A stretch of 64,000 nucleotides of DNA from Polyangiales bacterium (GTDB lineage: Bacteria > Myxococcota_A > Polyangia > Polyangiales > Houyiibacteriaceae): NCBI GenBank assembly GCA_041576815.1, contig JBFGKE010000014.1:8390-72389 (forward strand). The letters run 5' to 3'. The position numbers were made by a program, and so were the translations under genes. Numbering within the stretch: position 1 is the first letter of the stretch; the number at the start of each line of letters is the position of its first letter. Positions 4,548 to 62,851 of the stretch are shown piece by piece. The notes beneath the pieces are model-generated. The model did no database searches, was not told where the DNA came from, and saw nothing but the letters and a program-made list of their open reading frames with translations.

Positions 4548-4856
4548 ATGAAAGCCGTCTACGTCAGATATCAGGTCGACCCGTCCTTTGCAGAGACCAA
4601 CGCGGAGAACATCCGCAAAGTCATGCAGGCGCTTCAGGAGTCCGGAAGCGACGGCATACGCTATCAGTCGTTTAGAGAAGATGACGGCGTGACGTTCGTA
4701 CACTTCGGGATGTATCGCGACCAGGCTGCGATCGACGAGCTCACGGAAAGTCCGAGCTTCCAAGCCTTTCAGAGTGCGCTCAAAGCCAGCAAGCCGGTTC
4801 AGCCACCTGTGGCGCATTGGCTCGACGTCGTGGGGTCGAGCTACGAGGTTTTCTAG
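4548..4856 (+). CDS. ABM-like (dimeric alpha-beta barrel) small protein
   Basis: Trimmed from 4476..4856 to ATG 4548, which is preceded by GGGAGG. About 100 aa, MKAVYVRYQVDP...VTFVHFGMYRDQAAIDELTESPSFQAF resembles antibiotic-biosynthesis-monooxygenase-type domains. Family call is tentative. Confidence 0.5.
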   Translation: MKAVYVRYQVDPSFAETNAENIRKVMQALQESGSDGIRYQSFREDDGVTFVHFGMYRDQAAIDELTESPSFQAFQSALKASKPVQPPVAHWLDVVGSSYEVF

Positions 4857-4865
4857 CGCTCGAGC

Positions 4866-5027
4866 TTAGGCGGCTGGGCGGCGCTTCGGGCGAAGCCCAC
4901 GGCCCTCTCCCTCGTGCGAGAGGCGCTTGACGAGCTTGATCACGCCCAGTCCGAGCGCACCGCCACCTGCGGCGACCGCCGTGAGCGTCGCGACGGTCAA
5001 AAGAACCACGAGAAGTGCTGTATTCAT
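4866..5027 (-). CDS. Possible small single-pass membrane protein (53 aa)
   Basis: Internal ATG 5027 is preceded by GGGGGGA. MNTALLVVLLTVATLTAVAAGGGALGLGVI followed by a basic tail. No homology recognised. Confidence 0.3.
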   Translation of the reverse strand: MNTALLVVLLTVATLTAVAAGGGALGLGVIKLVKRLSHEGEGRGLRPKRRPAA

Positions 5028-5201
5028 TGATAATTCCCCCCCGGAAACCACCTGGGGGAATCGCCCCCGGTTTTCGGTGAGGTCGCAACTTTGCAATTTC
5101 AACGCACAGCGTCAAGGCTTTTTTCTCCGCACTGCACAGAGGGCCAGCGCAGTCGCGTCGCTTGCCGTGGGATCGCGCAGGCGCATACTCGAGCGTTCGC
5201 C

Positions 5202-5609
5202 GTGGATTGCACGAAGCCCCGAAAACCGCGTTTCCGCTGGCGCGCACATGCGAGCTTGGCGGTCGTCGGGCTGCTTTTTCAGGGCGCGCCTGCCGCGCAC
5301 ATGATGCTCGTCGAGCACACCCGGTGCGCAGAGCACGGTGAGCTGGCTCACGGAGAGCTCGACCACGGGACTCGGGGCGAGACGGCGCGGACAGAGCGGT
5401 GTGAGCTTCGGAGCGACGGCGGCTCGCAGTCTGGTCACGATCACTGCACGCAGGCAGCCGAGCGGCGAGATGCGATAGCCGTTGGCGCCACGACGGAGTC
5501 TCCGGTGCTGCGGCGCCAGCATGCACAGCACTTCATCGTGGGCGACGCACCGCACTTCGAACGCGACGCCCGCTATCGTCTGGCACCCAAGAGCTCCCCT
5601 CCCACCTGA
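5202..5609 (+). CDS. Possible secreted His/Cys-rich protein (strand assignment uncertain)
   Basis: GTG 5202 in the frame of track ORF 5091..5609. Signal-like RKPRFRWRAHASLAVVGLLFQGAPAAH followed by HTRCAEHGELAHGELDHG. Same direction as the downstream receptor gene. The antisense frame 5112..5687 has equal GC3, so either strand could be real. Confidence 0.3.
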   Translation: MDCTKPRKPRFRWRAHASLAVVGLLFQGAPAAHMMLVEHTRCAEHGELAHGELDHGTRGETARTERCELRSDGGSQSGHDHCTQAAERRDAIAVGATTESPVLRRQHAQHFIVGDAPHFERDARYRLAPKSSPPT

Positions 5610-5741
5610 CGTCGAGATCGTCCAGCCGGTTCGCGCCAAGCGCGAACGAACGGTGCCCGCGCTCGCCTTCGGGCTGGAGCGCTGCATCCGGTAGAGGCGT
5701 GGTCCACGCCAAGTCGATCGCCTTCGACGTCGAGGTAGGGA

Positions 5742-8345
5742 ATGGGAAACGAGAAAAGCAATGCTCATGCAGTGTGGCTGCTCGTGGGGATGATCCTCGC
5801 AGCCGGCGCGCCGGTCTACGCACAGGAGGAGACCGCGCCGGACACGGACACCGACACTGACACGGTCACTGACACGGACGCTGACGCTGTCCTCCACCCC
5901 CCTCATCTGGTCGCCGCCCCACCCCCCGACTACCCCCCCGGCCGCGAGGGGGAGGGGTTGCATCCGACCGTCATCCTTCGGATTACCGTGACCGCGGATG
6001 CGCGCGTGGTCGACGTGGTCGTGGAGCACTCCGGTGGCGTCGACTTCGATGCGCAGGCGGTCAAGGCCGTGAAGGGCTGGGCCTTCGAACCGGCGCGTCG
6101 CGGCGACACGCCAGTCTCGAGCCGCGTGCGCGTCGCGGTTCACTTCGAACCGGAGAGCGCAGGCGTCCCACACGAAGGCCAAACCCACGAGCCGCAAGCC
6201 GCGCCGCATACAGCACCCGCGGCGCCGCTTCCCAACGAGCCCGCGGCCGTCTCACCCGCGGTGATCGCACCCGGTCCGGGCACCGACAAGCGAAAGTATG
6301 GGTCGACCGCCGAGGTCGACGCCGAGCGACTGCGGTCGGGCGATCGCGGCGCCGCCGACTTCCAAATCGATCGCAGGGTGCTCGATGCCGCACCCGTCCT
6401 CACCGCGACCGACCTGCTTCAACGCGTCCCCGGCCTCTACAGCCGCAGCGTCGGGAGCCCCGCGGACGGGGACTTCTTCTATCTCCGGGGCTTCAACGCC
6501 GAGCACGGGCAGGACATCGAGTTCAAGCTCGGCGACATCCCCATCAATCAGCCATCGAACGTCCACGGCCAAGGGTACACGTACCTCAACTTCATCATCC
6601 CCGAAGCCGTGCGCGATCTCCGCGTGCTCAACGGGGTCTACGACCCTCGCCAGGGTGACTTCGCGGTCGCGGGTACCGTCCAATACGATCTTGGGGTCGC
6701 CGACCGCGGCATCTACGCCAGAAGCGAGCTCGGCTCGTTCCGCACGTTTCGACAGATTGGGATCTTCGCGCCCGAGGGCAAGCACACGGACACGTTTGGC
6801 GCGTTTCAGTTTCGGCGCACCGACGGGTTCGGACAAAACCGGAGCGGCATCGACGGCTCCGCGATGTTCCAATTCGGCTTTGGCAAACAGGACTGGCGTT
6901 TTCGCGTTCACGGCTCGTTTTGGGGCGCTCGCTACGACTCAGCCGGTGTTCTCCGGCGCGACGACATTCAGACCGGAGAAATCGGCTTCTACGACGTATA
7001 CCCATTCGATACCGCGCGCGCCCAAGAGGCGTTCAACGCCGGGGGCATCCTCGGCTTCCGCGGCGAGCACCGCGGCGCGCGCGAAAAGAACACCAGCTTC
7101 GACCTCTGGCTCCAGCTGCTCGACTACCGCATCGAACAGAACTTCACCGGTTTTCTCGAGAGCCCGGAGGGCGACCTCATCGAGCAGCGCGATCGGCGTT
7201 TCGTAGTCGGCGGCAACGCGCGGCACCGCACGGCCCGCTTCACGCCTTCGGAATACGCACACGGCACTGTCGAGCTAGGCGTCTCCGGGCGGTTCGACTT
7301 CATCAACCCACAGCAGCAGTTCCTGATCGATGGGTCGACGAGCCAAACCACCGAGGAAATCGTCGACGCCAATATCGTCCAGGGCGACGTCGGGCTCTGG
7401 GTCGACCTCGACTGGGACTTCTCGAAGTACATCAATCTCAAAGGCGGCGTCCGGGCCGACGTGCTCTTTTTCGACGTGGAAGATCGAATCGTCGATGCGA
7501 TTCCCAACTTCGAAGATCCCGAGAGCTTCGCGGGCGGGTTTCGTCGGACCGCCGCGGGCATCAACGCGGGCCCACGTATCACGCTCACCGGGAGACCCAC
7601 AGACTGGATCGACATCATCGGCGCCTACGGCGAAGGCTTTCGCTCACCCCAAGCGCGTACGTTGCTCGATGGCGGGAGTGTCCCCTTCAGCAAGGTGCGC
7701 TCCGTCGACTTCGGAGTGCGTTTTCGCGTCGGGCCCGAAGAGCAGCTGAAGCTTTCGCTCACCGGCTATCGCACCTGGCTCAATCGCGACGTGTTCTTCG
7801 AAGCGGCCGAAGGGCAGCTCGAGGAAATCGGACCGACCAGCCGAACCGGCGCGCTCTTCTACGCCACGACCAACCCGCTCCCGTGGTTGAGCGGGGCAAT
7901 CTCGGTCACGTACGTCTACGCGATCCTCGAAGGCCCGCCGCCGGGAGAGCCCGACTCCGGCCTTGGCAAGGGCGACCGCCTTCCATTCGTTCCGCCTTGG
8001 ACGGTCCGGCTCGACGTCGGCGCAAGCGGCGACCTGGCCGACCTCGGCAAGCACCCGCTCCGCGGACATCTTGGCCTCGCGTACAGCTTCATCGGCGCGC
8101 GACCCCTTCCCTTTTCCGGTTCCGCCGACCCGTTCTCGCTGCTCGACGGCTCCGCGCGCCTCTCCTGGTGGTTCCTCGAGCTCGGCTTCCAGGTCTTCAA
8201 TCTCACCGACAAGCAGTACGCTGGAAACGAGCTTGCCTTCGAGTCCAATTGGGATCCGCTAGGCGCCCCATCCCCCAATCCCGCCCGGCACATCACCGCG
8301 GGCCGCCCCCGCACGTTCTTCTTCACGATTGGGATCCGGTTGTAG
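5742..8345 (+). CDS. TonB-dependent outer-membrane receptor with N-terminal TonB C-terminal-like domain
   Basis: GAGGTAGGGA RBS. Signal peptide ...AAGAPVYAQE. PPDYPPGREGEGLHPTVILRITV...AVKGWAFEPARRGD resembles the TonB_C fold. Plug-like DLLQRVPGLYSRS...LRGFN. C-terminal beta-barrel ending ...FFFTIGIRL. Confidence 0.85.
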   Translation: MGNEKSNAHAVWLLVGMILAAGAPVYAQEETAPDTDTDTDTVTDTDADAVLHPPHLVAAPPPDYPPGREGEGLHPTVILRITVTADARVVDVVVEHSGGVDFDAQAVKAVKGWAFEPARRGDTPVSSRVRVAVHFEPESAGVPHEGQTHEPQAAPHTAPAAPLPNEPAAVSPAVIAPGPGTDKRKYGSTAEVDAERLRSGDRGAADFQIDRRVLDAAPVLTATDLLQRVPGLYSRSVGSPADGDFFYLRGFNAEHGQDIEFKLGDIPINQPSNVHGQGYTYLNFIIPEAVRDLRVLNGVYDPRQGDFAVAGTVQYDLGVADRGIYARSELGSFRTFRQIGIFAPEGKHTDTFGAFQFRRTDGFGQNRSGIDGSAMFQFGFGKQDWRFRVHGSFWGARYDSAGVLRRDDIQTGEIGFYDVYPFDTARAQEAFNAGGILGFRGEHRGAREKNTSFDLWLQLLDYRIEQNFTGFLESPEGDLIEQRDRRFVVGGNARHRTARFTPSEYAHGTVELGVSGRFDFINPQQQFLIDGSTSQTTEEIVDANIVQGDVGLWVDLDWDFSKYINLKGGVRADVLFFDVEDRIVDAIPNFEDPESFAGGFRRTAAGINAGPRITLTGRPTDWIDIIGAYGEGFRSPQARTLLDGGSVPFSKVRSVDFGVRFRVGPEEQLKLSLTGYRTWLNRDVFFEAAEGQLEEIGPTSRTGALFYATTNPLPWLSGAISVTYVYAILEGPPPGEPDSGLGKGDRLPFVPPWTVRLDVGASGDLADLGKHPLRGHLGLAYSFIGARPLPFSGSADPFSLLDGSARLSWWFLELGFQVFNLTDKQYAGNELAFESNWDPLGAPSPNPARHITAGRPRTFFFTIGIRL
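5841..5888 (+). repeat. Imperfect hexanucleotide repeat (GACACN)x8 encoding a (Asp-Thr)n linker
   Basis: gacacg gacacc gacact gacacg gtcact gacacg gacgct gacgct, translated DTDTDTDTVTDTDADA, just after the receptor signal peptide. Confidence 0.7.
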
Positions 8346-8399
8346 CGCAACCTGCCCGGCTTGGACGGTGCCTGCCACCCGTGGGAAGCTGAAGCACTC

Positions 8400-9020
8400 G
8401 TGCATTCCCGTCGCAGAATCACCGTCCTTGGAGCGATGATGGTCGTCGCCTGCGGGTTTGTTTTCGGCAACGCGACCATCCGAGGGCAATCGAAGCCCGC
8501 CACCGGGCGCGATCTCACCGGCACCGCCCCACCGGAGTGGACGGTGGGGCCCGAATGGAACGGCTCGAAGCCGCTTCGGCTGCGCGACCTCCGCGGGCAA
8601 GTGGTCATGGTCCGCTTTTGGACGGACACTTGTCCCTATTGCGCGGCAAGCCTGCCCGCGATGCAGAAGCTCGCCGACGAGTTTCGCGGCCAGGATGTAG
8701 TGTTCATCGGGCTCTATCACTCGAAGCCGCTCGGGAGCGAGCGCCCGTGGAAGGAGGCGGTCGCGAGGGCCCGCGAGCTCGGGGTGCGCTTCCCGATCGC
8801 CTATGACCACGACTGGAAGACGGTGCGCCGGTGGTGGCTCGACGGGCGGCAGCGCCCCGCCACGTCCTCGAGCTTCATCATCGGCCGGGACGGACGAATT
8901 GCGTTCGTGCATCCGGGTCCGGCCTTCTTCCCAGGCGACGACGCCGCAGACGCAGAGGCCAACGCCGACTTCGAGGCAATTCGGATGGCGATTCGAAAGG
9001 CGCTCGATACCCGTCGCTGA
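8400..9020 (+). CDS. TlpA/ResA-like thiol-disulfide oxidoreductase (thioredoxin fold), probable lipoprotein
   Basis: FWTDTCPYCAASLPAMQKL has a CxxC redoxin motif. GTG 8400 gives the lipoprotein-like N-terminus VHSRRRITVLGAMMVVAC. The track start (TTG 8361) is also possible. Confidence 0.8.
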   Translation: MHSRRRITVLGAMMVVACGFVFGNATIRGQSKPATGRDLTGTAPPEWTVGPEWNGSKPLRLRDLRGQVVMVRFWTDTCPYCAASLPAMQKLADEFRGQDVVFIGLYHSKPLGSERPWKEAVARARELGVRFPIAYDHDWKTVRRWWLDGRQRPATSSSFIIGRDGRIAFVHPGPAFFPGDDAADAEANADFEAIRMAIRKALDTRR

Positions 9021-9117: not shown

Positions 9118-9157
9118 ATTTGCGGGCGCTGGGGGTTGGGTGGAAGACTGATGGGGG

Positions 9158-9685
9158 ATGGAGGAGCTTCGGCGGAGCTGGAGTGTGCCGGTTTGGCTGT
9201 CGGTGGCGATGGTGCTCGCCCTTGGCGTGCGCGTTGCGCTGGTATGGTCGCAGCTGCCGGACCCGATGGCTTCGCACTTCAGCGGCGGCGGGCAGCCCGA
9301 CGCCTTCATGAGCCGGAGCGGGTTCTTCCTCTGGATGGCGGTCGTCGGAGGTGGCTCCGTCGCGGCCGTCTTCGTTGCCCCCATCTTGCTTCGGATCACA
9401 CCCCGAAAGCTCGTCAACCTGCCCAACCGCGATTACTGGCTCGCCACCAACGAGCGCCGGGATGTAGCGATCGATCGGCTGGCCGGAGTGATGGGGTGGA
9501 TCGGCGCTGCGACTACCGGGCTTCTGGTGATCGCCACCGAGCTCGCGGTCCAGGCCAATCTCGAGAAAACCAACTTCGACGATGCCACGTTTCTCTTCTT
9601 CTTGGCGGTCTACTTCGTCTTCGTGGTCGCCGCGCTCGTCCAAACCGTACGGATCTTCCGAATCCCCGAGGGATCGCGCGTGTGA
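9158..9685 (+). CDS. DUF1648-type integral membrane protein
   Basis: WSQLPDPMASHFSGGGQPDAFMSRSGF after the first TM segment, with four predicted hydrophobic segments. Its stop overlaps the GTG of the next frame (GTGA at 9682-9685). Confidence 0.7.
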   Translation: MEELRRSWSVPVWLSVAMVLALGVRVALVWSQLPDPMASHFSGGGQPDAFMSRSGFFLWMAVVGGGSVAAVFVAPILLRITPRKLVNLPNRDYWLATNERRDVAIDRLAGVMGWIGAATTGLLVIATELAVQANLEKTNFDDATFLFFLAVYFVFVVAALVQTVRIFRIPEGSRV

Positions 9686-9729
9686 CCGCGCGCTTGCCAA
9701 GGGCACCGCTGCGCGGGACACTCCACGAG

Positions 9730-10749
9730 ATGCGAGCCCGGGCACCGATTCTTCTGTTGAGCCTGGCACTCTGCGCCTGCGCGACGGAGGGCACGACCGA
9801 CATCACCCCGACACTCACCTATTCTTTCGAACCGATCGCGGTGGGCCCGGGCGAAGAGGTGAGCGAAGTCTGTCAAAGTTGGACGCTCGACAACGATGAG
9901 ACGCTGTACGTCTCGAAGATTCGGCAGCGAAACGAAGGCGCCTGGCATCACTCGAACTGGTTTTTCGTTCCCGAGGACACTTATGATGGCCCGGACGGCA
10001 CGTGGGACTGCGCCGAGCGCGGCTTCCACGATGTGTCGGCTGCGCTCTCCGGCGGCGTGTTCTTTGCACAGTCCACGCAAACCTTCGAAGAGCTTCAGGC
10101 ATTTCAAGAGGGCGCGGCGCTCGAGATCCCGCCCCGGCATCGAATCGTCGGCGGGGTGCATCTCGTCAACGTATCGGCCTCCCCCATGGACACGGCGCTC
10201 AGCTTCGACATCGAAACCATCGACGAAGAGCAAGTCGACGTCCGCCTTCGGCCGATCGCATTCACCAACACGGCGCTCGACATCGAGCCCCAGGCCGAAT
10301 CGAGATTCGGCATGACCTGTGACCTGGGTGAGCCTTTCGATCGAATGCTCGGGGCGACGCCCGTCTACAACATCTATTACGTCCTCGCCCACTATCACGA
10401 ATGGGGCAACTACTTCCGGCTGAGCTTCGTCGATGAAGCCGGCGGCGATCGCACGGTCTTCGAGCTCAAGAGTGCAATCGGCGAGCCGCTCGGCGCGACT
10501 ATCGATCCCCCGATGAGCTCCAATGGCGCCTCCGGCCTCCGCGTGGAATGCGGCTACATCAACAACACCGATCGCCGACTGAAATACGGTCTTGGTGGGC
10601 AGGAGATGTGCGTGTTTCTAGCCTATAGCGACGCAGATTTGAAAATCGGCGCGGCGTCTTCGGCCAACACCGCCCTCGGCCCGAACGAAGAGGGTGTGTA
10701 CATGAACGAGACGTCCTGCGGCGCGGTGCTCGCTACGCCGGCGGAGTGA
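9730..10749 (+). CDS. Lipoprotein resembling copper type II ascorbate-dependent monooxygenases (PHM/DBH catalytic core)
   Basis: Trimmed from 9136..10749. MRARAPILLLSLALCAC lipobox (alt coupled GTG start at 9682). WHHSNW, GGVHLVN, AHYHEWG and GGQEMCVF occur in the order and spacing of PHM copper ligands HH..H / HxH..M. Confidence 0.6.
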   Translation: MRARAPILLLSLALCACATEGTTDITPTLTYSFEPIAVGPGEEVSEVCQSWTLDNDETLYVSKIRQRNEGAWHHSNWFFVPEDTYDGPDGTWDCAERGFHDVSAALSGGVFFAQSTQTFEELQAFQEGAALEIPPRHRIVGGVHLVNVSASPMDTALSFDIETIDEEQVDVRLRPIAFTNTALDIEPQAESRFGMTCDLGEPFDRMLGATPVYNIYYVLAHYHEWGNYFRLSFVDEAGGDRTVFELKSAIGEPLGATIDPPMSSNGASGLRVECGYINNTDRRLKYGLGGQEMCVFLAYSDADLKIGAASSANTALGPNEEGVYMNETSCGAVLATPAE

Positions 10750-11245
10750 CGCCGCGCACGCCAAACGGTTGGGGCTTCCACATCCGGATGCCGAGCAGAA
10801 ACGGGATCACCCAGTAGGGACCGTTGAAGGCCCAGAACACGAGAGGGTTTCCAGGTGGGGGCCCGATCCAATACTCGTAGATGAAGAACTCGGTGCAGCC
10901 GTGAAGCATCGCGCCGACGTAAACCAGCGCCATCGGCTGAATCCAGTTCTTGCCCTTGATGAAGGCGTACACGAGCAGCAGGTAAAACGGTCCGTACACC
11001 ATCCCGGAAATGCCGGTGTTGACTCGCACGTAAGGGTGATCCGCCAGGAAGAAGTGGTCCTGCGCGATCTCCCCGTACCAGCGGTTGGCGCGGGACCAAA
11101 AGGCGTCGCCTTCGAGCAGGCCGAGCGCGTGCCACGAATCGCTGAAGAAAGACGAGAAGGCGAAAAACGAGAAGCAAACCACGAAAAAAATGTCTTTTCT
11201 TCGCTCGCTCAGCGGTAGCCCTTCGCTCGTGCTCACCATCTGCAA
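10733..11245 (-). CDS. TMEM97 (sigma-2 receptor)/EXPERA-family four-TM membrane protein
   Basis: By-eye alignment to human TMEM97: NRWYGEIAQDHFF vs LKWYAKEFKDPLL; YAFIKGKNWIQPMALVY vs YAFLKGSCKWIRTPAIIY; GPYWVIPFLL vs APYLLIPFIL. 170 aa. Confidence 0.7.
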   Translation of the reverse strand: MQMVSTSEGLPLSERRKDIFFVVCFSFFAFSSFFSDSWHALGLLEGDAFWSRANRWYGEIAQDHFFLADHPYVRVNTGISGMVYGPFYLLLVYAFIKGKNWIQPMALVYVGAMLHGCTEFFIYEYWIGPPPGNPLVFWAFNGPYWVIPFLLGIRMWKPQPFGVRGVTPPA

Positions 11246-46769: not shown

Positions 46770-48899
46770 TCAGAGCTCGAGCGTGCGCAGGCGGAGGGAG
46801 TTCGCGATGACGGAAACCGAGCTGAAGCTCATCGCGGCGGCTGCAACCATTGGACTGAGGAGAACGCCGAAAACCGGATAGGCGACGCCCGCCGCGATCG
46901 GCACCCCCAGCGCGTTGTACACGAACGCGAAGAAGAGGTTTTGCTTGATGTTGGCCATGGTCGCCCGGCTGAGCTTTCGCGCGCGCACGATGCCTCGAAG
47001 GTCCCCTTTGACGAGCGTTGCCCCGGCGCTTTCGATCGCGACGTCGGTGCCGGTCCCCATCGCGATGCCCACGTCCGATTGCGCCAAAGCGGGAGCGTCG
47101 TTGATGCCGTCGCCCGCCATGGCCACGACGCGCCCCTCTCGTTGGAGCCGTTTGACGGCCTCTGCCTTCGCGTCCGGCAGAACCTCCGCGATCACTTCGT
47201 CAATCGAAAGCGTTGCAGCAACCGACTCCGCGGTCTGGCGATTGTCGCCGGTGAGCATGACCACGCGGAGCCCTTCTTGGTGAAGCAAGGCGATCGCGCT
47301 CCGGGCGCTGTCCTTGATCGGATCGGCCACGCCCAGAATCGCGGCAACCTCGCCATCCAGCACGGCGAACACGACCGTTTGACCCTCCCGGCGAAGCACA
47401 TCCGCTCGTTCGGCGAGTGGGCCGGCTGACAATGCGAGCTCTTCGAGCAACTTGCGGCTGCCCACGGCGACGACGCGCCCGTCGATCCGCCCCACCACGC
47501 CTTTGCCCGTGATCGATTCGAATGAATCCACGCTCGAAATCGATGCGCCGCGCTCACGCGCTCCCGCGACGATGGCAGCGGCCAAGGGGTGCTCACTCGC
47601 GTGCTCGAGGCTGGCCACCGCCGCCATCAATGCGTTTTGGTCGACGCCCGTAGCAGTCTCGATTGCGACAAGCGCCGGCTTTCCGACGGTCAGCGTACCG
47701 GTCTTGTCGACCACGACTGTGTCTACCTTGCGCATGAGCTCTATGGCTTCGGCATTCCTGAAGAGGACGCCAGCACTGGCACCCTTGCCCATTGCAACCA
47801 TGATCGACATGGGAGTCGCGAGGCCCAAGGCGCACGGGCAAGCGATGATGAGGACAGCAACCGCGTTGATGATCGCGTAAGCCATACGCGGCGCGGGACC
47901 GAAGAGCCCCCACACGATGAAGGTGATCGCGGCGACCGCGATCACGATCGGGACGAAATAGCTGGACACGACGTCGGCTAGCTTTTGAATCGGCGCACGC
48001 GTCCGCTGCGCCTCCGCAACCATTGCGACGATGCGCGAAAGCAGGGTCTCGGCGCCCACCTTCTCAGCGCGCACGACCAGCATGCCAGTTCCGTTGATCG
48101 TGGCGCCAATCACGGCATCGCTCTCGCGCTTGTGAACAGGAATGGGCTCTCCCGTCACCATGGACTCGTCCACGGGGCTGGAGCCCTCGATCACGATGCC
48201 GTCGACGGGAATTTTTTCGCCGGGACGCACTCGCAATCGGTCGCCCACGCGAACGTTCTCGAGTGCGACGTCCTCCTCGACTCCATCGTCTCGGATTCGG
48301 CTCGCCGTCTTGGCCGCCAAGCCGAGTAGCTTCTTGATCGCGGCACCCGTCTGGCTTCGCGCACGAAGCTCGAGAACCTGACCCAGCAGAATCAAGGTGA
48401 CGATTACGGCCGCCGCCTCGAAGTACACCGCGACCTGACCAGCGTGATCGCGAAAAGAAGCGGGAAAGATATGTGGAGCCAACGCTGCGACGACGCTGTA
48501 CCCATACGCGACACTGACGCCCAATCCGATCAACGTCCACATGTTCAGGCTTCTGTTCTTCAACGACTGAACGAAGCGAACGTAGAACGGCCATGCCGAC
48601 CACAGGCAAACCGGCGTCGCGAAAGCGAGCTCGAGCAGGGTCCGTGTCCTGGAAGAAAACAATCGTGAGAACAGCTCGCCGGGAACGAGATGGCCCATGG
48701 CGAGCGCGAACACGGGGATCGTGAGAGCTACAGCCACCCACAGGCGGCGCGTCATCTCGATCAGCTCGGGGTTTTCATCGTCGTCGTCCGCGCGAGCATC
48801 ACGCGGTTCGAGAGCCATGCCGCAAATCGGACAGCTTCCGGGCCTCGAGCGGACGATCTCGGGGTGCATCGGACAAGTCCACTCGGTGGGTCCGGCCAT
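46770..48899 (-). CDS. copA: Heavy-metal (Cu+-type) translocating P1B-ATPase
   Basis: N-terminal CPMHPE...CPICGM metal-binding motif, [25 protein letters not shown]. Confidence 0.9.
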
Positions 48900-48968
48900 G
48901 AAGGGAGAATACCGGCTGTCGGCAGGAAGCGCCCCCGACGCTTCGCTCGCCCTTGGCGAGCGGACGGG

Positions 48969-59924: not shown

Positions 59925-60401
59925 TCAGTTGCTCATGTCGTGCAGGTAGGACCGGAAGCAGTCGAGCTCGTCGTTGCTCCATGCGGGGGCGAGGATCGGC
60001 ATCCGCTCGCCCGAGCCGGGATCACTCGTGAGCTTCGTCAGGATGTTGCTGCAGTCCGGGTCGAAGCCGTCGACGATCAGGTCGCCGTTGGTTGCCAAAG
60101 TCGACGAGAGCGGAGCCAACGCGCTCTGCACGGAAGGGCCCGCTAGATCGATCTCGAAGGTCGCTGCGTTCATCCCATGACAGCCATCAGCCGTGCAGCC
60201 TTCGAGCTTGGTGCGAAGCGCCGAATCGTCGCTCATCGAGTAGCCGGTGAGCCCGCATGAAACGGCCGGGACCTCGGGATTCTCGCAGTAGACGAGGTTG
60301 CGAAGCCGGGGCTCGGAGGTGGCGTCCTCGCCGCAGGCGACGAGCAGGGCCCCAAAGGCCAGAAGAAGAAACCGCATCGAGCGCTTGGATGTGTAAGCCA
60401 T
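59925..60401 (-). CDS. Lipoprotein with a cytochrome-c-like C-x4-CHG motif
   Basis: FLLLAFGALLVAC lipobox. LEGCTADGCHGMNAATFEIDL resembles Planctomycete PSCyt-type motifs but is not canonical CxxCH. Confidence 0.65.
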   Translation of the reverse strand: MAYTSKRSMRFLLLAFGALLVACGEDATSEPRLRNLVYCENPEVPAVSCGLTGYSMSDDSALRTKLEGCTADGCHGMNAATFEIDLAGPSVQSALAPLSSTLATNGDLIVDGFDPDCSNILTKLTSDPGSGERMPILAPAWSNDELDCFRSYLHDMSN

Positions 60402-60652
60402 GTTTTCCTGATCACTCCTGTTAGAAATTTCTGCCTAGGGTCTAAATAATGGGTAAAAACAACAACGTTTCCAAAAGAAAATTTCAGGCGGACTTTTTCC
60501 CTGAAATTCTCGCATGCTGCGAAGCGAGCGCAAGGTAGCTCACTCAATAAATTAACTCTAAAGGATTATAAACTGCCGGTATGAGAGTGTGGGACGCCAA
60601 ATTTTTAGTCCTGCAGGGTGTTTTTTCGCATGTTAGGCTGTCAGCTGTGCAG
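60402..60652. promoter_or_regulatory. AT-rich divergent intergenic region with GAAA(A)TTTC palindromes
   Basis: Far lower GC than its surroundings. agaaatttct (60423-60432). Inverted repeat gaaaatttcagg (60477-60488) / cctgaaattctc (60500-60511), 11/12 complementary. Confidence 0.55.
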
Positions 60653-62851
60653 ATGAGTTACCGGTGTATCAATGGCAACCTAAAGGGTGGGTTTTTCCTC
60701 CTGGTGCTCGGCGCGGCGCTTACCGTCTCCGGCTGCAAGGAAGATCCGACGCTCTTTGGCGGCTGCTCGACCAACAACATCAACGCGTGTCCGCAGTCGG
60801 ATGGGTTTGAAAACCCGTACGAAGGGCAGCTCGAGCTGCTCACGTGGAACGAGACGCTTCGAAAGGCGAGCCTCGAGCTCACCGGTAGGCTCCCGACCCC
60901 GCGACAGCAGCAGATCACCGAGCAGAATGGCCAGCTCGGGCTCGAGGCGTCGCTTGCAGAGATGATGAGGACGCCGGCGTTCTACGACCGGATGATGGAG
61001 CTCTACAACGACCATTTCCTCACCGACAAGTACCTCGGGCGAGAGAATGCGATCGAGCTTCTCGATGAAGAGCGGTGGCCGAACCTGCGATGGTTCGAGA
61101 CCAAGTTTCCGGACGACGACGAGACGGCGCGAGTCACCAACGACTCGCTTGCGAGGGAGCCGCTGGAGCTCATCGCGAACGTGATTCGCAAAGAGGTGCC
61201 TTTCACGGAGATCTTGACCGCGAATTACACCATGGCCAACGGCTTCTCGCAGCTTTCCTTGGTGGGGCTGCCCGACATCCCGCTGGGGCTCGGTGAAGAC
61301 CCGATGGGCTTCCGCGAGATCGAGGTTCCAGGCATTCCGCACGCGGGCATTCTGACCTCGGCGATGTTCCTCAATCGATTTCCGACGAGTGACACCAACA
61401 TCAACCGTCACCGCTCCCGAATGGCCTACTGGTTCTTTCTCGACATCGACATCAACAAGTTCGGAAGTCGTCCCGTCGATGCAAGCAGTGACTTCGGCGA
61501 AAATCCGACGCTCAACAATCCTGACTGCACGGTGTGCCATACGACGATGGATCCCGTTGCAGGTCTATTCATGAATTGGAACGAGAGCGGCGAATATAGC
61601 GGCGAAGGCGAGTGGTTCGGCCCCGACTACATTCTTCCCCCGGGCTTCAACGGCGAAGCGTTGCCGAACAGCAACCGCCGAAACGCGCTTCAGTGGTTTG
61701 CCCAAGAGGTCTCACGCAATCCGCGCTTCGCGCAAGCCACCGTGAAGACGGTGTTCCAGGGCATGACCGGCCAGGAGGTCCTCGACATCACGGTGCCGCA
61801 GGCGCCCCCGATGCAGGACCCGCCGATGGATCCGCCCCCGATGGGCGGCGGCGGCATGGGCGGCATGGGTGGCACGATGAGCGGCACCGGCGGCATGGGC
61901 GGCATGGGCGGCGCTGGTGGCGTGGGCGGCGCGGCCGGCATGGGCGGCGTCGGTGGCATGGGCGCCGGCGGCATGGGCGGCACCCCGCCTCCACCTCCGC
62001 CTCCCCCACCCCCACCGCTTCCCGAGGAAGATCCGATGATCGACCCGGACGTGCATCCTGCGCTCGAGCGTGCATACAACCTCCAGCAGCAGATCCTGCG
62101 CACGATTCAGCAGCGCTTCATCGATAGCGACTACAACTTCAAGCTCCTCGTCCGGGAGATCGTGCTGAGCCCCTACTTCCGGGCCAAGAACGCGGCCCCG
62201 CTCACCAGCGATTTGGAGATCGAGCTCTCGACCTTCGGAACGGCGCGCTTACTCACGCCAGAGCACTTGTCGCGCAAGATCGAGGCCACCACCGGCGTGC
62301 GGTGGCGACGAGACCCGAATCGCGACGACTACCTCCTCGATCAGTACCGCATCTTCTACGGCGGCATCGATTCGGATCTGGTGACGCAGCGCGTGACCGA
62401 GCCCAACGGCGTCATGGCGAGCCTCGCGCAGCGCATGGCCTACGAGGTGGCTTGCTTCGCGGTGCCCTACGACTTCTCGAAGCCGCGAGACGAACGGGTC
62501 ATGTTCCCGAACATCGACCAAGGGACGCCCGTCGACGGCTCGGATGCCACCCGCGAGGCGGTTCGGCATTTACACCTACAGCTCCTCGGCGAAGACCTTC
62601 CGATTTCGGACCCGGAAATCGATGCCACGATGGCGGTCTTGACCGAGACGCACATGCTGGGAAGCCAGGGCCTTGGCAACGGCTCCGTCTCCGAAGAGCT
62701 CGCGGGCCCATGCAGGCTTTTCGATGACCGAATCACCGGCGCCGACCTGCCTCAGTCGCGCGTCATCAACCGTGACAGCAACTACAACATCCGCGCCTGG
62801 ATGGCTGCAGTCAGTTACCTGCTGTCCGATTACCGCTACCTGTACGAGTGA
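60653..62851 (+). CDS. Large lipoprotein related to Planctomycete PSD-type (DUF1588/DUF1585-like) proteins, with a Met/Gly-rich and poly-Pro insert
   Basis: Trimmed from 60581 to ATG 60653, giving a ...LGAALTVSGC lipobox. ILTANYTMANGF and PDCTVCHTTMDPVAGLF (C-x2-CH-x3-DP-x-G). Precise family assignment uncertain. Confidence 0.8.
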   Translation: MSYRCINGNLKGGFFLLVLGAALTVSGCKEDPTLFGGCSTNNINACPQSDGFENPYEGQLELLTWNETLRKASLELTGRLPTPRQQQITEQNGQLGLEASLAEMMRTPAFYDRMMELYNDHFLTDKYLGRENAIELLDEERWPNLRWFETKFPDDDETARVTNDSLAREPLELIANVIRKEVPFTEILTANYTMANGFSQLSLVGLPDIPLGLGEDPMGFREIEVPGIPHAGILTSAMFLNRFPTSDTNINRHRSRMAYWFFLDIDINKFGSRPVDASSDFGENPTLNNPDCTVCHTTMDPVAGLFMNWNESGEYSGEGEWFGPDYILPPGFNGEALPNSNRRNALQWFAQEVSRNPRFAQATVKTVFQGMTGQEVLDITVPQAPPMQDPPMDPPPMGGGGMGGMGGTMSGTGGMGGMGGAGGVGGAAGMGGVGGMGAGGMGGTPPPPPPPPPPPLPEEDPMIDPDVHPALERAYNLQQQILRTIQQRFIDSDYNFKLLVREIVLSPYFRAKNAAPLTSDLEIELSTFGTARLLTPEHLSRKIEATTGVRWRRDPNRDDYLLDQYRIFYGGIDSDLVTQRVTEPNGVMASLAQRMAYEVACFAVPYDFSKPRDERVMFPNIDQGTPVDGSDATREAVRHLHLQLLGEDLPISDPEIDATMAVLTETHMLGSQGLGNGSVSEELAGPCRLFDDRITGADLPQSRVINRDSNYNIRAWMAAVSYLLSDYRYLYE
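61841..62016 (+). repeat. Coding low-complexity tract: (Gly/Met)n followed by Pro11
   Basis: MGGGGMGGMGGTMSGTGGMGGMGGAGGVGGAAGMGGVGGMGAGGMGGTPPPPPPPPPPPLP, from reiterated ggcatgggc/ggcggc units. Confidence 0.8.

Follow-up and report, generated by a model that had tools for sequence, protein, structure and literature searches.

The bacterial gene described here lies in a 64,000-nucleotide stretch of DNA (the window) from a Polyangiales bacterium, contig JBFGKE010000014.1, and encodes a predicted lipoprotein of 339 residues (9730..10749, + strand, stop codon included). We find that this lipoprotein almost certainly belongs to the superfamily of peptidylglycine alpha-hydroxylating monooxygenase (PHM) and dopamine beta-monooxygenase (DBH), and we propose, by analogy with those enzymes, that it is an active copper-dependent oxygenase, a reading to which we assign a probability of roughly 0.7. 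PHM amidates peptide hormones and DBH makes noradrenaline; how the two copper ions of these enzymes cooperate across 11 Å is still debated, and nearly all work has been done on animal proteins. The relation of the bacterial lipoprotein to PHM and DBH is a very distant but genuine homology of the catalytic core, and it extends to the residues that hold both coppers and to the disulfide framework around them.

The kinship is recovered only through family profiles and structure, where curated models fail. We assembled an alignment of 30 close relatives (A1, 55-82% identity) and a second of 48 full-length diverse representatives (A2, 28-52% identity), and took as reference a PHM alignment of 27 sequences with PF01082 and/or PF03712, in which rat PHMcc stands first. 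An AlphaFold2 model built on A1, with a mean predicted local distance difference test score (pLDDT) of 85.2 and a predicted template modelling score (pTM) of 0.82, is almost all beta. Searched against the PDB with Foldseek, the model matches PHM at ranks 1-29 (E 5e-15 to 6e-12, 282-324 aligned columns, template modelling (TM) score up to 0.67) and human DBH at ranks 30-31, so that the top 31 matches are all PHM or DBH; the next match is seven orders of magnitude worse, with a TM score of 0.2. The A2 profile, run against PDB sequences, likewise gives DBH (E 0.0038) and PHM (E 0.0045-0.0063) as its twelve best matches, in alignments that place the family's HyH on HTH and its EMC on DEMC or EEMC. 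Profile-profile comparison of A2 with the PHM alignment by hhalign reaches 98.3% probability (E 1.6e-14) over 262 columns, and two divergent family members match PF03712 directly below threshold, with scores of 17.0 and 13.9 bits (cutoff 23). The original prediction, made from the letters of the window, had assigned the protein a PHM/DBH-type fold with a full set of ligands for the CuH and CuM copper sites; structure comparison, family profile and profile-profile alignment all bear it out.

The motifs named in that prediction are all found in the lipoprotein at the places given: CQSW (C48), WHHSNW (H73, H74), GGVHLVN (H144), AHYHEWG (H221, H223) and GGQEMCVF (M293). They form an HH...H...HxH...M pattern in PHM order, with steps of 70 residues from position 74 to 144, 77 from 144 to 221 and 70 from 223 to 293, against 64, 70 and 70 in PHM, and the match in order and approximate spacing, EMC included, holds up in alignment. 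In the profile-profile alignment, H73, H74 and H144 fall on the CuH ligands H107, H108 and H172 of PHM, and H221, H223 and M293 on the CuM ligands H242, H244 and M314 (44 is added to the alignment index to give PHM residue numbers). The N-terminal beta-sandwich domain (about residues 28-165; 9811..10224, + strand, as for all features of this gene) aligns to the PHM N domain and holds the putative CuH site, with the H73-H74 codons at 9946..9951 and the H144 codon at 10159..10161, where GGVHLVN aligns with LQVHYG. The C-terminal beta-sandwich domain (about residues 170-337; 10237..10740) holds the putative CuM site. Its H221-Y-H223 codons (10390..10398), the equivalent of PHM H242-T-H244, align to the HTH of both PHM and DBH, and its E292-M293-C294 codons (10603..10611), the equivalent of PHM E313-M314-C315, align to the DEMC of PHM and the EEMC of DBH; the putative CuM methionine itself, M293, is encoded at 10606-10608.

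Conservation follows the same residues. All six ligands and six cysteines are invariant in A1, and in the more divergent A2 each ligand is kept by 43-45 of the 48 proteins: H73 is histidine in 43 and H74 in 45, H144, H221 and H223 in 45 each, and M293 is kept in 43, next to an E292 and a C294 that are kept in all 48. Conservation of the ligands among relatives, on which the original prediction had let its claim depend, is thus found at both depths. The cysteines match those of the three PHM disulfides: the pair C48 and C94 in the N-terminal domain corresponds to PHM C81 and C126, the pair C274 and C294 to C293 and C315, and C197 to C227, whose partner C334 lies outside the aligned block and probably corresponds to C330, the partner of C197. 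C48, C94, C274 and C294 are kept in 48/48 A2 sequences, and C197 and C330 in 47/48. Family members without the ligands lose several of them together, five or six in P0200 and P0223 and four in P0238, as expected if these residues act together as metal sites. These three proteins keep the cysteines and the fold-defining motifs despite four to six ligand replacements, and on their sequences they are probably pseudo-enzymes or repurposed proteins.

The protein is also predicted to be exported and lipid-anchored, as the original prediction had held. Read from the ATG at 9730, the product opens MRARAPILLLSLALCAC-ATEG, a signal peptide with a lipobox (L-C-A-C17; 9730..9780) in which C17 is the predicted lipidated cysteine; residues 1-22 have a pLDDT below 50. 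The C17 column is cysteine in 30/30 sequences of A1 and in 44/48 of A2.

We propose that the lipoprotein is an exported, lipid-anchored enzyme whose core, a pair of beta-sandwich domains, is that of the non-coupled binuclear copper monooxygenases, the group that comprises PHM, DBH and tyramine beta-monooxygenase (TBH). If PHM is a guide, a CuH ion coordinated by H73, H74 and H144 of the N-terminal domain would take up and relay electrons, and a CuM ion coordinated by H221, H223 and M293 of the C-terminal domain would bind O2 and abstract hydrogen from a C-H bond of the substrate to yield a hydroxylated product, with three disulfides that may be inherited from a common ancestor bracing the fold. 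We infer the binding of two coppers, the O2 chemistry, the hydroxylase reaction and the identity of the electron donor by this analogy. The donor would probably be a periplasmic redox protein rather than ascorbate, as suggested by a cytochrome-c-like fusion in a sister subfamily.

This sister subfamily is made up of longer proteins. Among the 150 family representatives listed, 18 are 505-583 residues long, and at least 14 carry about 110 extra C-terminal residues with an invariant C-x4-C-H followed about 65 residues on by an invariant M-P. The long relatives (for example P0131, P0145 and P0150) share the catalytic core and its ligands with the window protein (family profile E ~1e-60 to 1e-90), and their CX4CH...MP domain resembles class I c-type cytochromes; it is missing from the window protein, whose electrons would have to come from a separate donor. 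Three of four such C-terminal domains give sub-threshold Pfam matches to PSCyt1 ('Planctomycete cytochrome C', E 0.013-0.085), and the best PDB matches of a profile of the domain are the dihaem c-type cytochrome FoxE (E 0.0022) and cytochromes c6 (E 0.057 and 0.072), in alignments that set CH against the haem-binding CH and MP against the axial-methionine region. These signals are weak but coherent, and suggest that copper core and haem domain are joined in one chain in the sister subfamily, a fusion consistent with a protein, rather than ascorbate, passing single electrons to CuH. The window itself encodes a stand-alone 158-residue lipoprotein with a CX4CH...MP domain (59925..60401, - strand; tblastn E 8e-6 with P0150), 49 kb from the PHM-like gene and adjoining a gene for a 756-residue protein with a DCTVCH motif (60581..62851, + strand). 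The 158-residue lipoprotein is possibly a separate electron carrier; nothing links its gene to the PHM-like gene.

Among the closest known counterparts is PHM itself (EC 1.14.17.3; rat PHMcc; PDB 1PHM, 1OPM and 1SDW; PF01082 + PF03712), which shares with the lipoprotein the two-domain beta-sandwich fold of about 300 residues, the six ligands in the same order with near-identical spacing, the EMC motif, the cysteines of the three disulfides, and a stand-alone core (about 310-320 residues here) that works outside the cytoplasm, where conditions are oxidising. The two differ in that identity is only 13-15%, in that the lipoprotein is bacterial and predicted to be lipid-anchored, and in that the WHHSNW and FAQSTQ motifs, invariant in the bacterial family, are absent from PHM. 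DBH (human, PDB 4ZEL), considered together with TBH, has the same catalytic core fold (Foldseek TMq 0.63, E 5e-11) and is the best PDB sequence match of the family profile. At 339 residues against 550-580 in the solved DBH chains, however, the lipoprotein has neither a DOMON domain, the N-terminal mark of the DBH/TBH/MOXD1 branch, for which Pfam gives no match in a protein whose core begins about 10 residues past the lipobox, nor a C-terminal dimerisation domain, and nothing points to a phenylethylamine substrate. A gene for a PAL-like amidating lyase, the partner of PHM, was sought by tblastn with a rat PAL query at low sensitivity; neither the window nor any of 85 related loci gave a match. 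These loci were compared with flanks of up to 6-8 kb per side where the contig allows. Because the residues that anchor the substrate in PHM are replaced, the DOMON domain is lacking and no PAL gene was found nearby, the lipoprotein is a member of the superfamily and not an orthologue of PHM, DBH or TBH.

Several results weigh against an active oxygenase of PHM/DBH descent. The lipoprotein matches no Pfam or NCBIfam family at E <= 1, and so neither PF01082 nor PF03712 at gathering score; the Cu2_monooxygenase models were the check that the original prediction had put forward, and judged by them alone its claim fails. PDB searches with the single sequence or with the A1 profile return noise, such as Fab chains and a methyltransferase. 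In the profile-profile alignment the positions of PHM R240, N316 and Y318, which we take to hold the peptide's C-terminal carboxylate, are L219, V295 and L297 in the lipoprotein, and R240 is invariant in the 27-sequence PHM alignment; with these anchoring residues replaced, the substrate would not be a glycine-extended peptide bound in the manner of PHM. Across the 85 related loci no partner gene is conserved with the window's orthologue group, and the neighbourhood gives no hint of a substrate. The protein has no fused donor domain, and ascorbate is not known to serve bacteria as a periplasmic reductant. The window sequence is present in marine metagenomes, and a search for RNA evidence found it only in DNA metagenome runs. 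Part of this evidence would also suit a protein that binds copper at one or both sites without catalysis, as a periplasmic carrier, buffer or sensor on a PHM scaffold: the substrate-binding residues of PHM are not shared, no partner gene is conserved, three paralogues often occur per genome among the 80 loci kept, and the genome holds a copper-exporting ATPase-like gene, though 36 kb off. We nevertheless regard a non-catalytic role as unlikely, because a His3 and a His2Met site in two separate domains is an arrangement specific to redox enzymes, because EMC and the three structural disulfides are kept over 28-80% identity, and because the cytochrome-c-like fusion in the sister subfamily points to electron transfer and not to storage. 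The fold alone would also admit a metal-free double-jelly-roll protein of the PNGase F or carbohydrate-binding type, in which the His/Met pattern is incidental. PNGase F is bacterial and secreted, has a double jelly-roll, and stands in the same Pfam clan as PHM (CL0612) as a bacterial branch of the same fold (PMC8812541), and PNGase F-like and other sugar-binding structures do appear low in the Foldseek list. It is not a metalloenzyme of the PHM type, however, and its structural match is far weaker (rank 46, E 2.5e-5, TM 0.28): the matches to PHM and DBH are stronger by 8-10 orders of magnitude and span the full length, the profile-profile match is specifically to PHM, and the ligands are conserved and, when lost, are lost together. 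We give the metal-free reading very little credence, and favor a copper-dependent oxygenase.

A further proposal concerns the context of the gene rather than its chemistry. The original prediction had coupled the lipoprotein to the preceding gene, which encodes a DUF1648 membrane protein of 175 residues (9158..9685, + strand; PF07853, E 1.2e-10), and the two genes could form a dedicated unit, translationally coupled through a GTGA overlap. The lipoprotein reading frame spans 9136..10749 (+ strand), and the ATG at 9730 lies 44 nt past the DUF1648 stop; an alternative in-frame GTG at 9682-9684 would lengthen the signal peptide by 16 residues and, as predicted, overlaps the DUF1648 stop TGA (9683-9685) as GTGA. 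In favor of a unit, the genes share a strand and either overlap by 4 nt or stand 44 nt apart, a Shine-Dalgarno-like GAGGGA stands 8 nt ahead of the GTG and gives it a better ribosome-binding look than the ATG, and an identical protein, encoded on a contig whose genes follow the same order, is called from the GTG in the public annotation (355 residues). That contig is the only other place where the window's gene order is repeated. Against it, all 29 relatives in A1 start MR... at the position of the ATG and not at the GTG, no DUF1648 gene was found by tblastn or phmmer within 6 kb in any of the 85 related loci, and orthologues with 75-79% identity sit in unrelated contexts, next to a D12 methyltransferase and an ABC ATPase/MlaE pair, next to DUF5684 and enoyl-CoA hydratase genes, or next to genes for a radical-SAM and a CMD-family protein. 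A dedicated two-gene unit is therefore quite improbable, and the claim of coupling is not supported: the pairing with DUF1648 is local and not conserved beyond this genome, where the two genes are probably co-transcribed. We leave the start codon undecided between ATG and GTG; the mature protein is identical either way, and only the length of the cleaved signal peptide differs.

The remaining neighbors are those that the original prediction had read. On its 3' side the lipoprotein gene, ending at 10749, overlaps by 17 nt a convergent gene for an EXPERA/EBP-family (sterol isomerase/TMEM97-like) membrane protein (10733..11245, - strand; PF05241, E 3.3e-11). Upstream lie genes for an AhpC-TSA/Redoxin (TlpA-like) protein (8361..9020, + strand; Pfam, E 1e-14) and for a TonB-dependent receptor (5742..8345, + strand; Pfam Plug, barrel and N-terminal TonB_C), the latter unusual in that a TonB C-terminal domain (PF03544) is fused at its N-terminus, before plug and barrel. 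The CopA-like ATPase that had been noted in the window is a P1B-type reading frame (46773..48968, - strand) with DKTGT and CPC motifs and a short cysteine-rich N-terminus (CPMH...CPICG); at 36 kb from the lipoprotein gene it is too distant to bear on it. A scan for promoters and terminators gave no signal above shuffled expectation.

The related loci were compared in sets of three, four and 80, by tblastn, phmmer and all-against-all clustering. A redoxin gene adjoins the lipoprotein gene in 0/85 of them (tblastn, phmmer), and one paralogue group sits in a syntenic block with YceI, YchF, PHO4 and PhoU. An EXPERA gene recurs, convergent and directly downstream, in two other loci: an orthologue locus, L031 (1780..2265, - strand; EXPERA 72% identical), and the locus of a 51%-identical paralogue, L058 (5256..5744, - strand; EXPERA 32% identical). 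The closest relatives of each are without an EXPERA neighbor; the recurrence may be coincidental, or it may point to a substrate of lipid or sterol type. In L077-L079 a paralogue of the lipoprotein (48% identical) has an orthologue of the TonB-dependent receptor (59-62% identity) at a distance of about 1.7 kb. In L078 a gene for a 509-residue protein that reads by eye as a flavin-containing monooxygenase of Baeyer-Villiger/FMO type (7034..8563, - strand) sits between the PHM-like paralogue and the receptor orthologue. Both the EXPERA and the receptor recurrences are too infrequent to assign a substrate.

The family to which the lipoprotein belongs is large. An exhaustive profile search finds 768 representative proteins at E <= 1e-3, and a word-indexed search finds 506 relatives; these are without exception unnamed or 'hypothetical', and no Pfam domain has been precomputed for any of them. 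Loci were collected from one genome per species with two family-specific peptide patterns, a scan that covers the closer lineages and says nothing on distant ones. Nearly all of its 80 best loci carry the label Myxococcota, Polyangiales, Sandaracinaceae or 'delta proteobacterium'; every one comes from a metagenome-assembled genome, and many assemblies give three loci. Two of them, L031 and L080, on contigs of assembly CAXMND, carry typical myxobacterial PHM-like genes under the label 'uncultured Coxiellaceae bacterium', and the label or the binning of that assembly looks wrong. Upstream of a family paralogue in L004 (2904..4685 and 4810..6642, + strand), as well as in L005, stands a tandem pair of genes for lipoproteins of about 600 residues; they belong to the syntenic block named above, where YceI and a 180-residue protein are encoded too. 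The tandem proteins of L004 begin with a CX4CH domain followed by an HH...H...HxH...EM series that reads by eye in PHM-like order; as further PHM-type cores they are unconfirmed, since hhalign against PHM gives 0.3% probability and the PDB no match.

In the literature searched, the PHM/DBH family figures as eukaryotic, where the original prediction had called it essentially animal: a review of metalloproteomes lists PHM and DBM under eukaryotes only (PMC7435645), and the family is described elsewhere as widespread in eukaryotes (PMC8812541). Full-text searches turned up no characterised bacterial PHM/DBH-like enzyme; the 'PHM domain' mentioned for myxothiazol (PMC9396620) is a monooxygenase domain of an assembly line. 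What our analysis adds is a large bacterial family missed by curated models, with a bare lipid-anchored core, PHM ligands without the PHM substrate site, and relatives fused to cytochrome-like domains. Some bacterial proteins in sequence databases do match the Pfam PHM models, so that the notion of PHM-like proteins in bacteria is not new as such.

We tentatively suggest, as a speculation that we hold to be possible rather than probable, that non-coupled binuclear copper monooxygenases have radiated widely and unrecognised in myxobacteria, driven by fused or separate c-type cytochromes instead of ascorbate, and hydroxylating envelope or secreted molecules such as lipids, sterol-like compounds (at which the EXPERA neighbor may hint) or peptides. 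If this is true, the PHM/DBH chemistry, so far regarded as eukaryotic, would possess an ancient branch in bacteria that draws its electrons from another source. For work on mechanism, a bacterial homologue that is compact, has a single core and keeps the complete ligand set would offer a new and possibly easier system, and its cytochrome-fused relatives would be a natural case of a built-in electron donor. The hundreds of family genes that are now called 'hypothetical' could be annotated with a model of the family.

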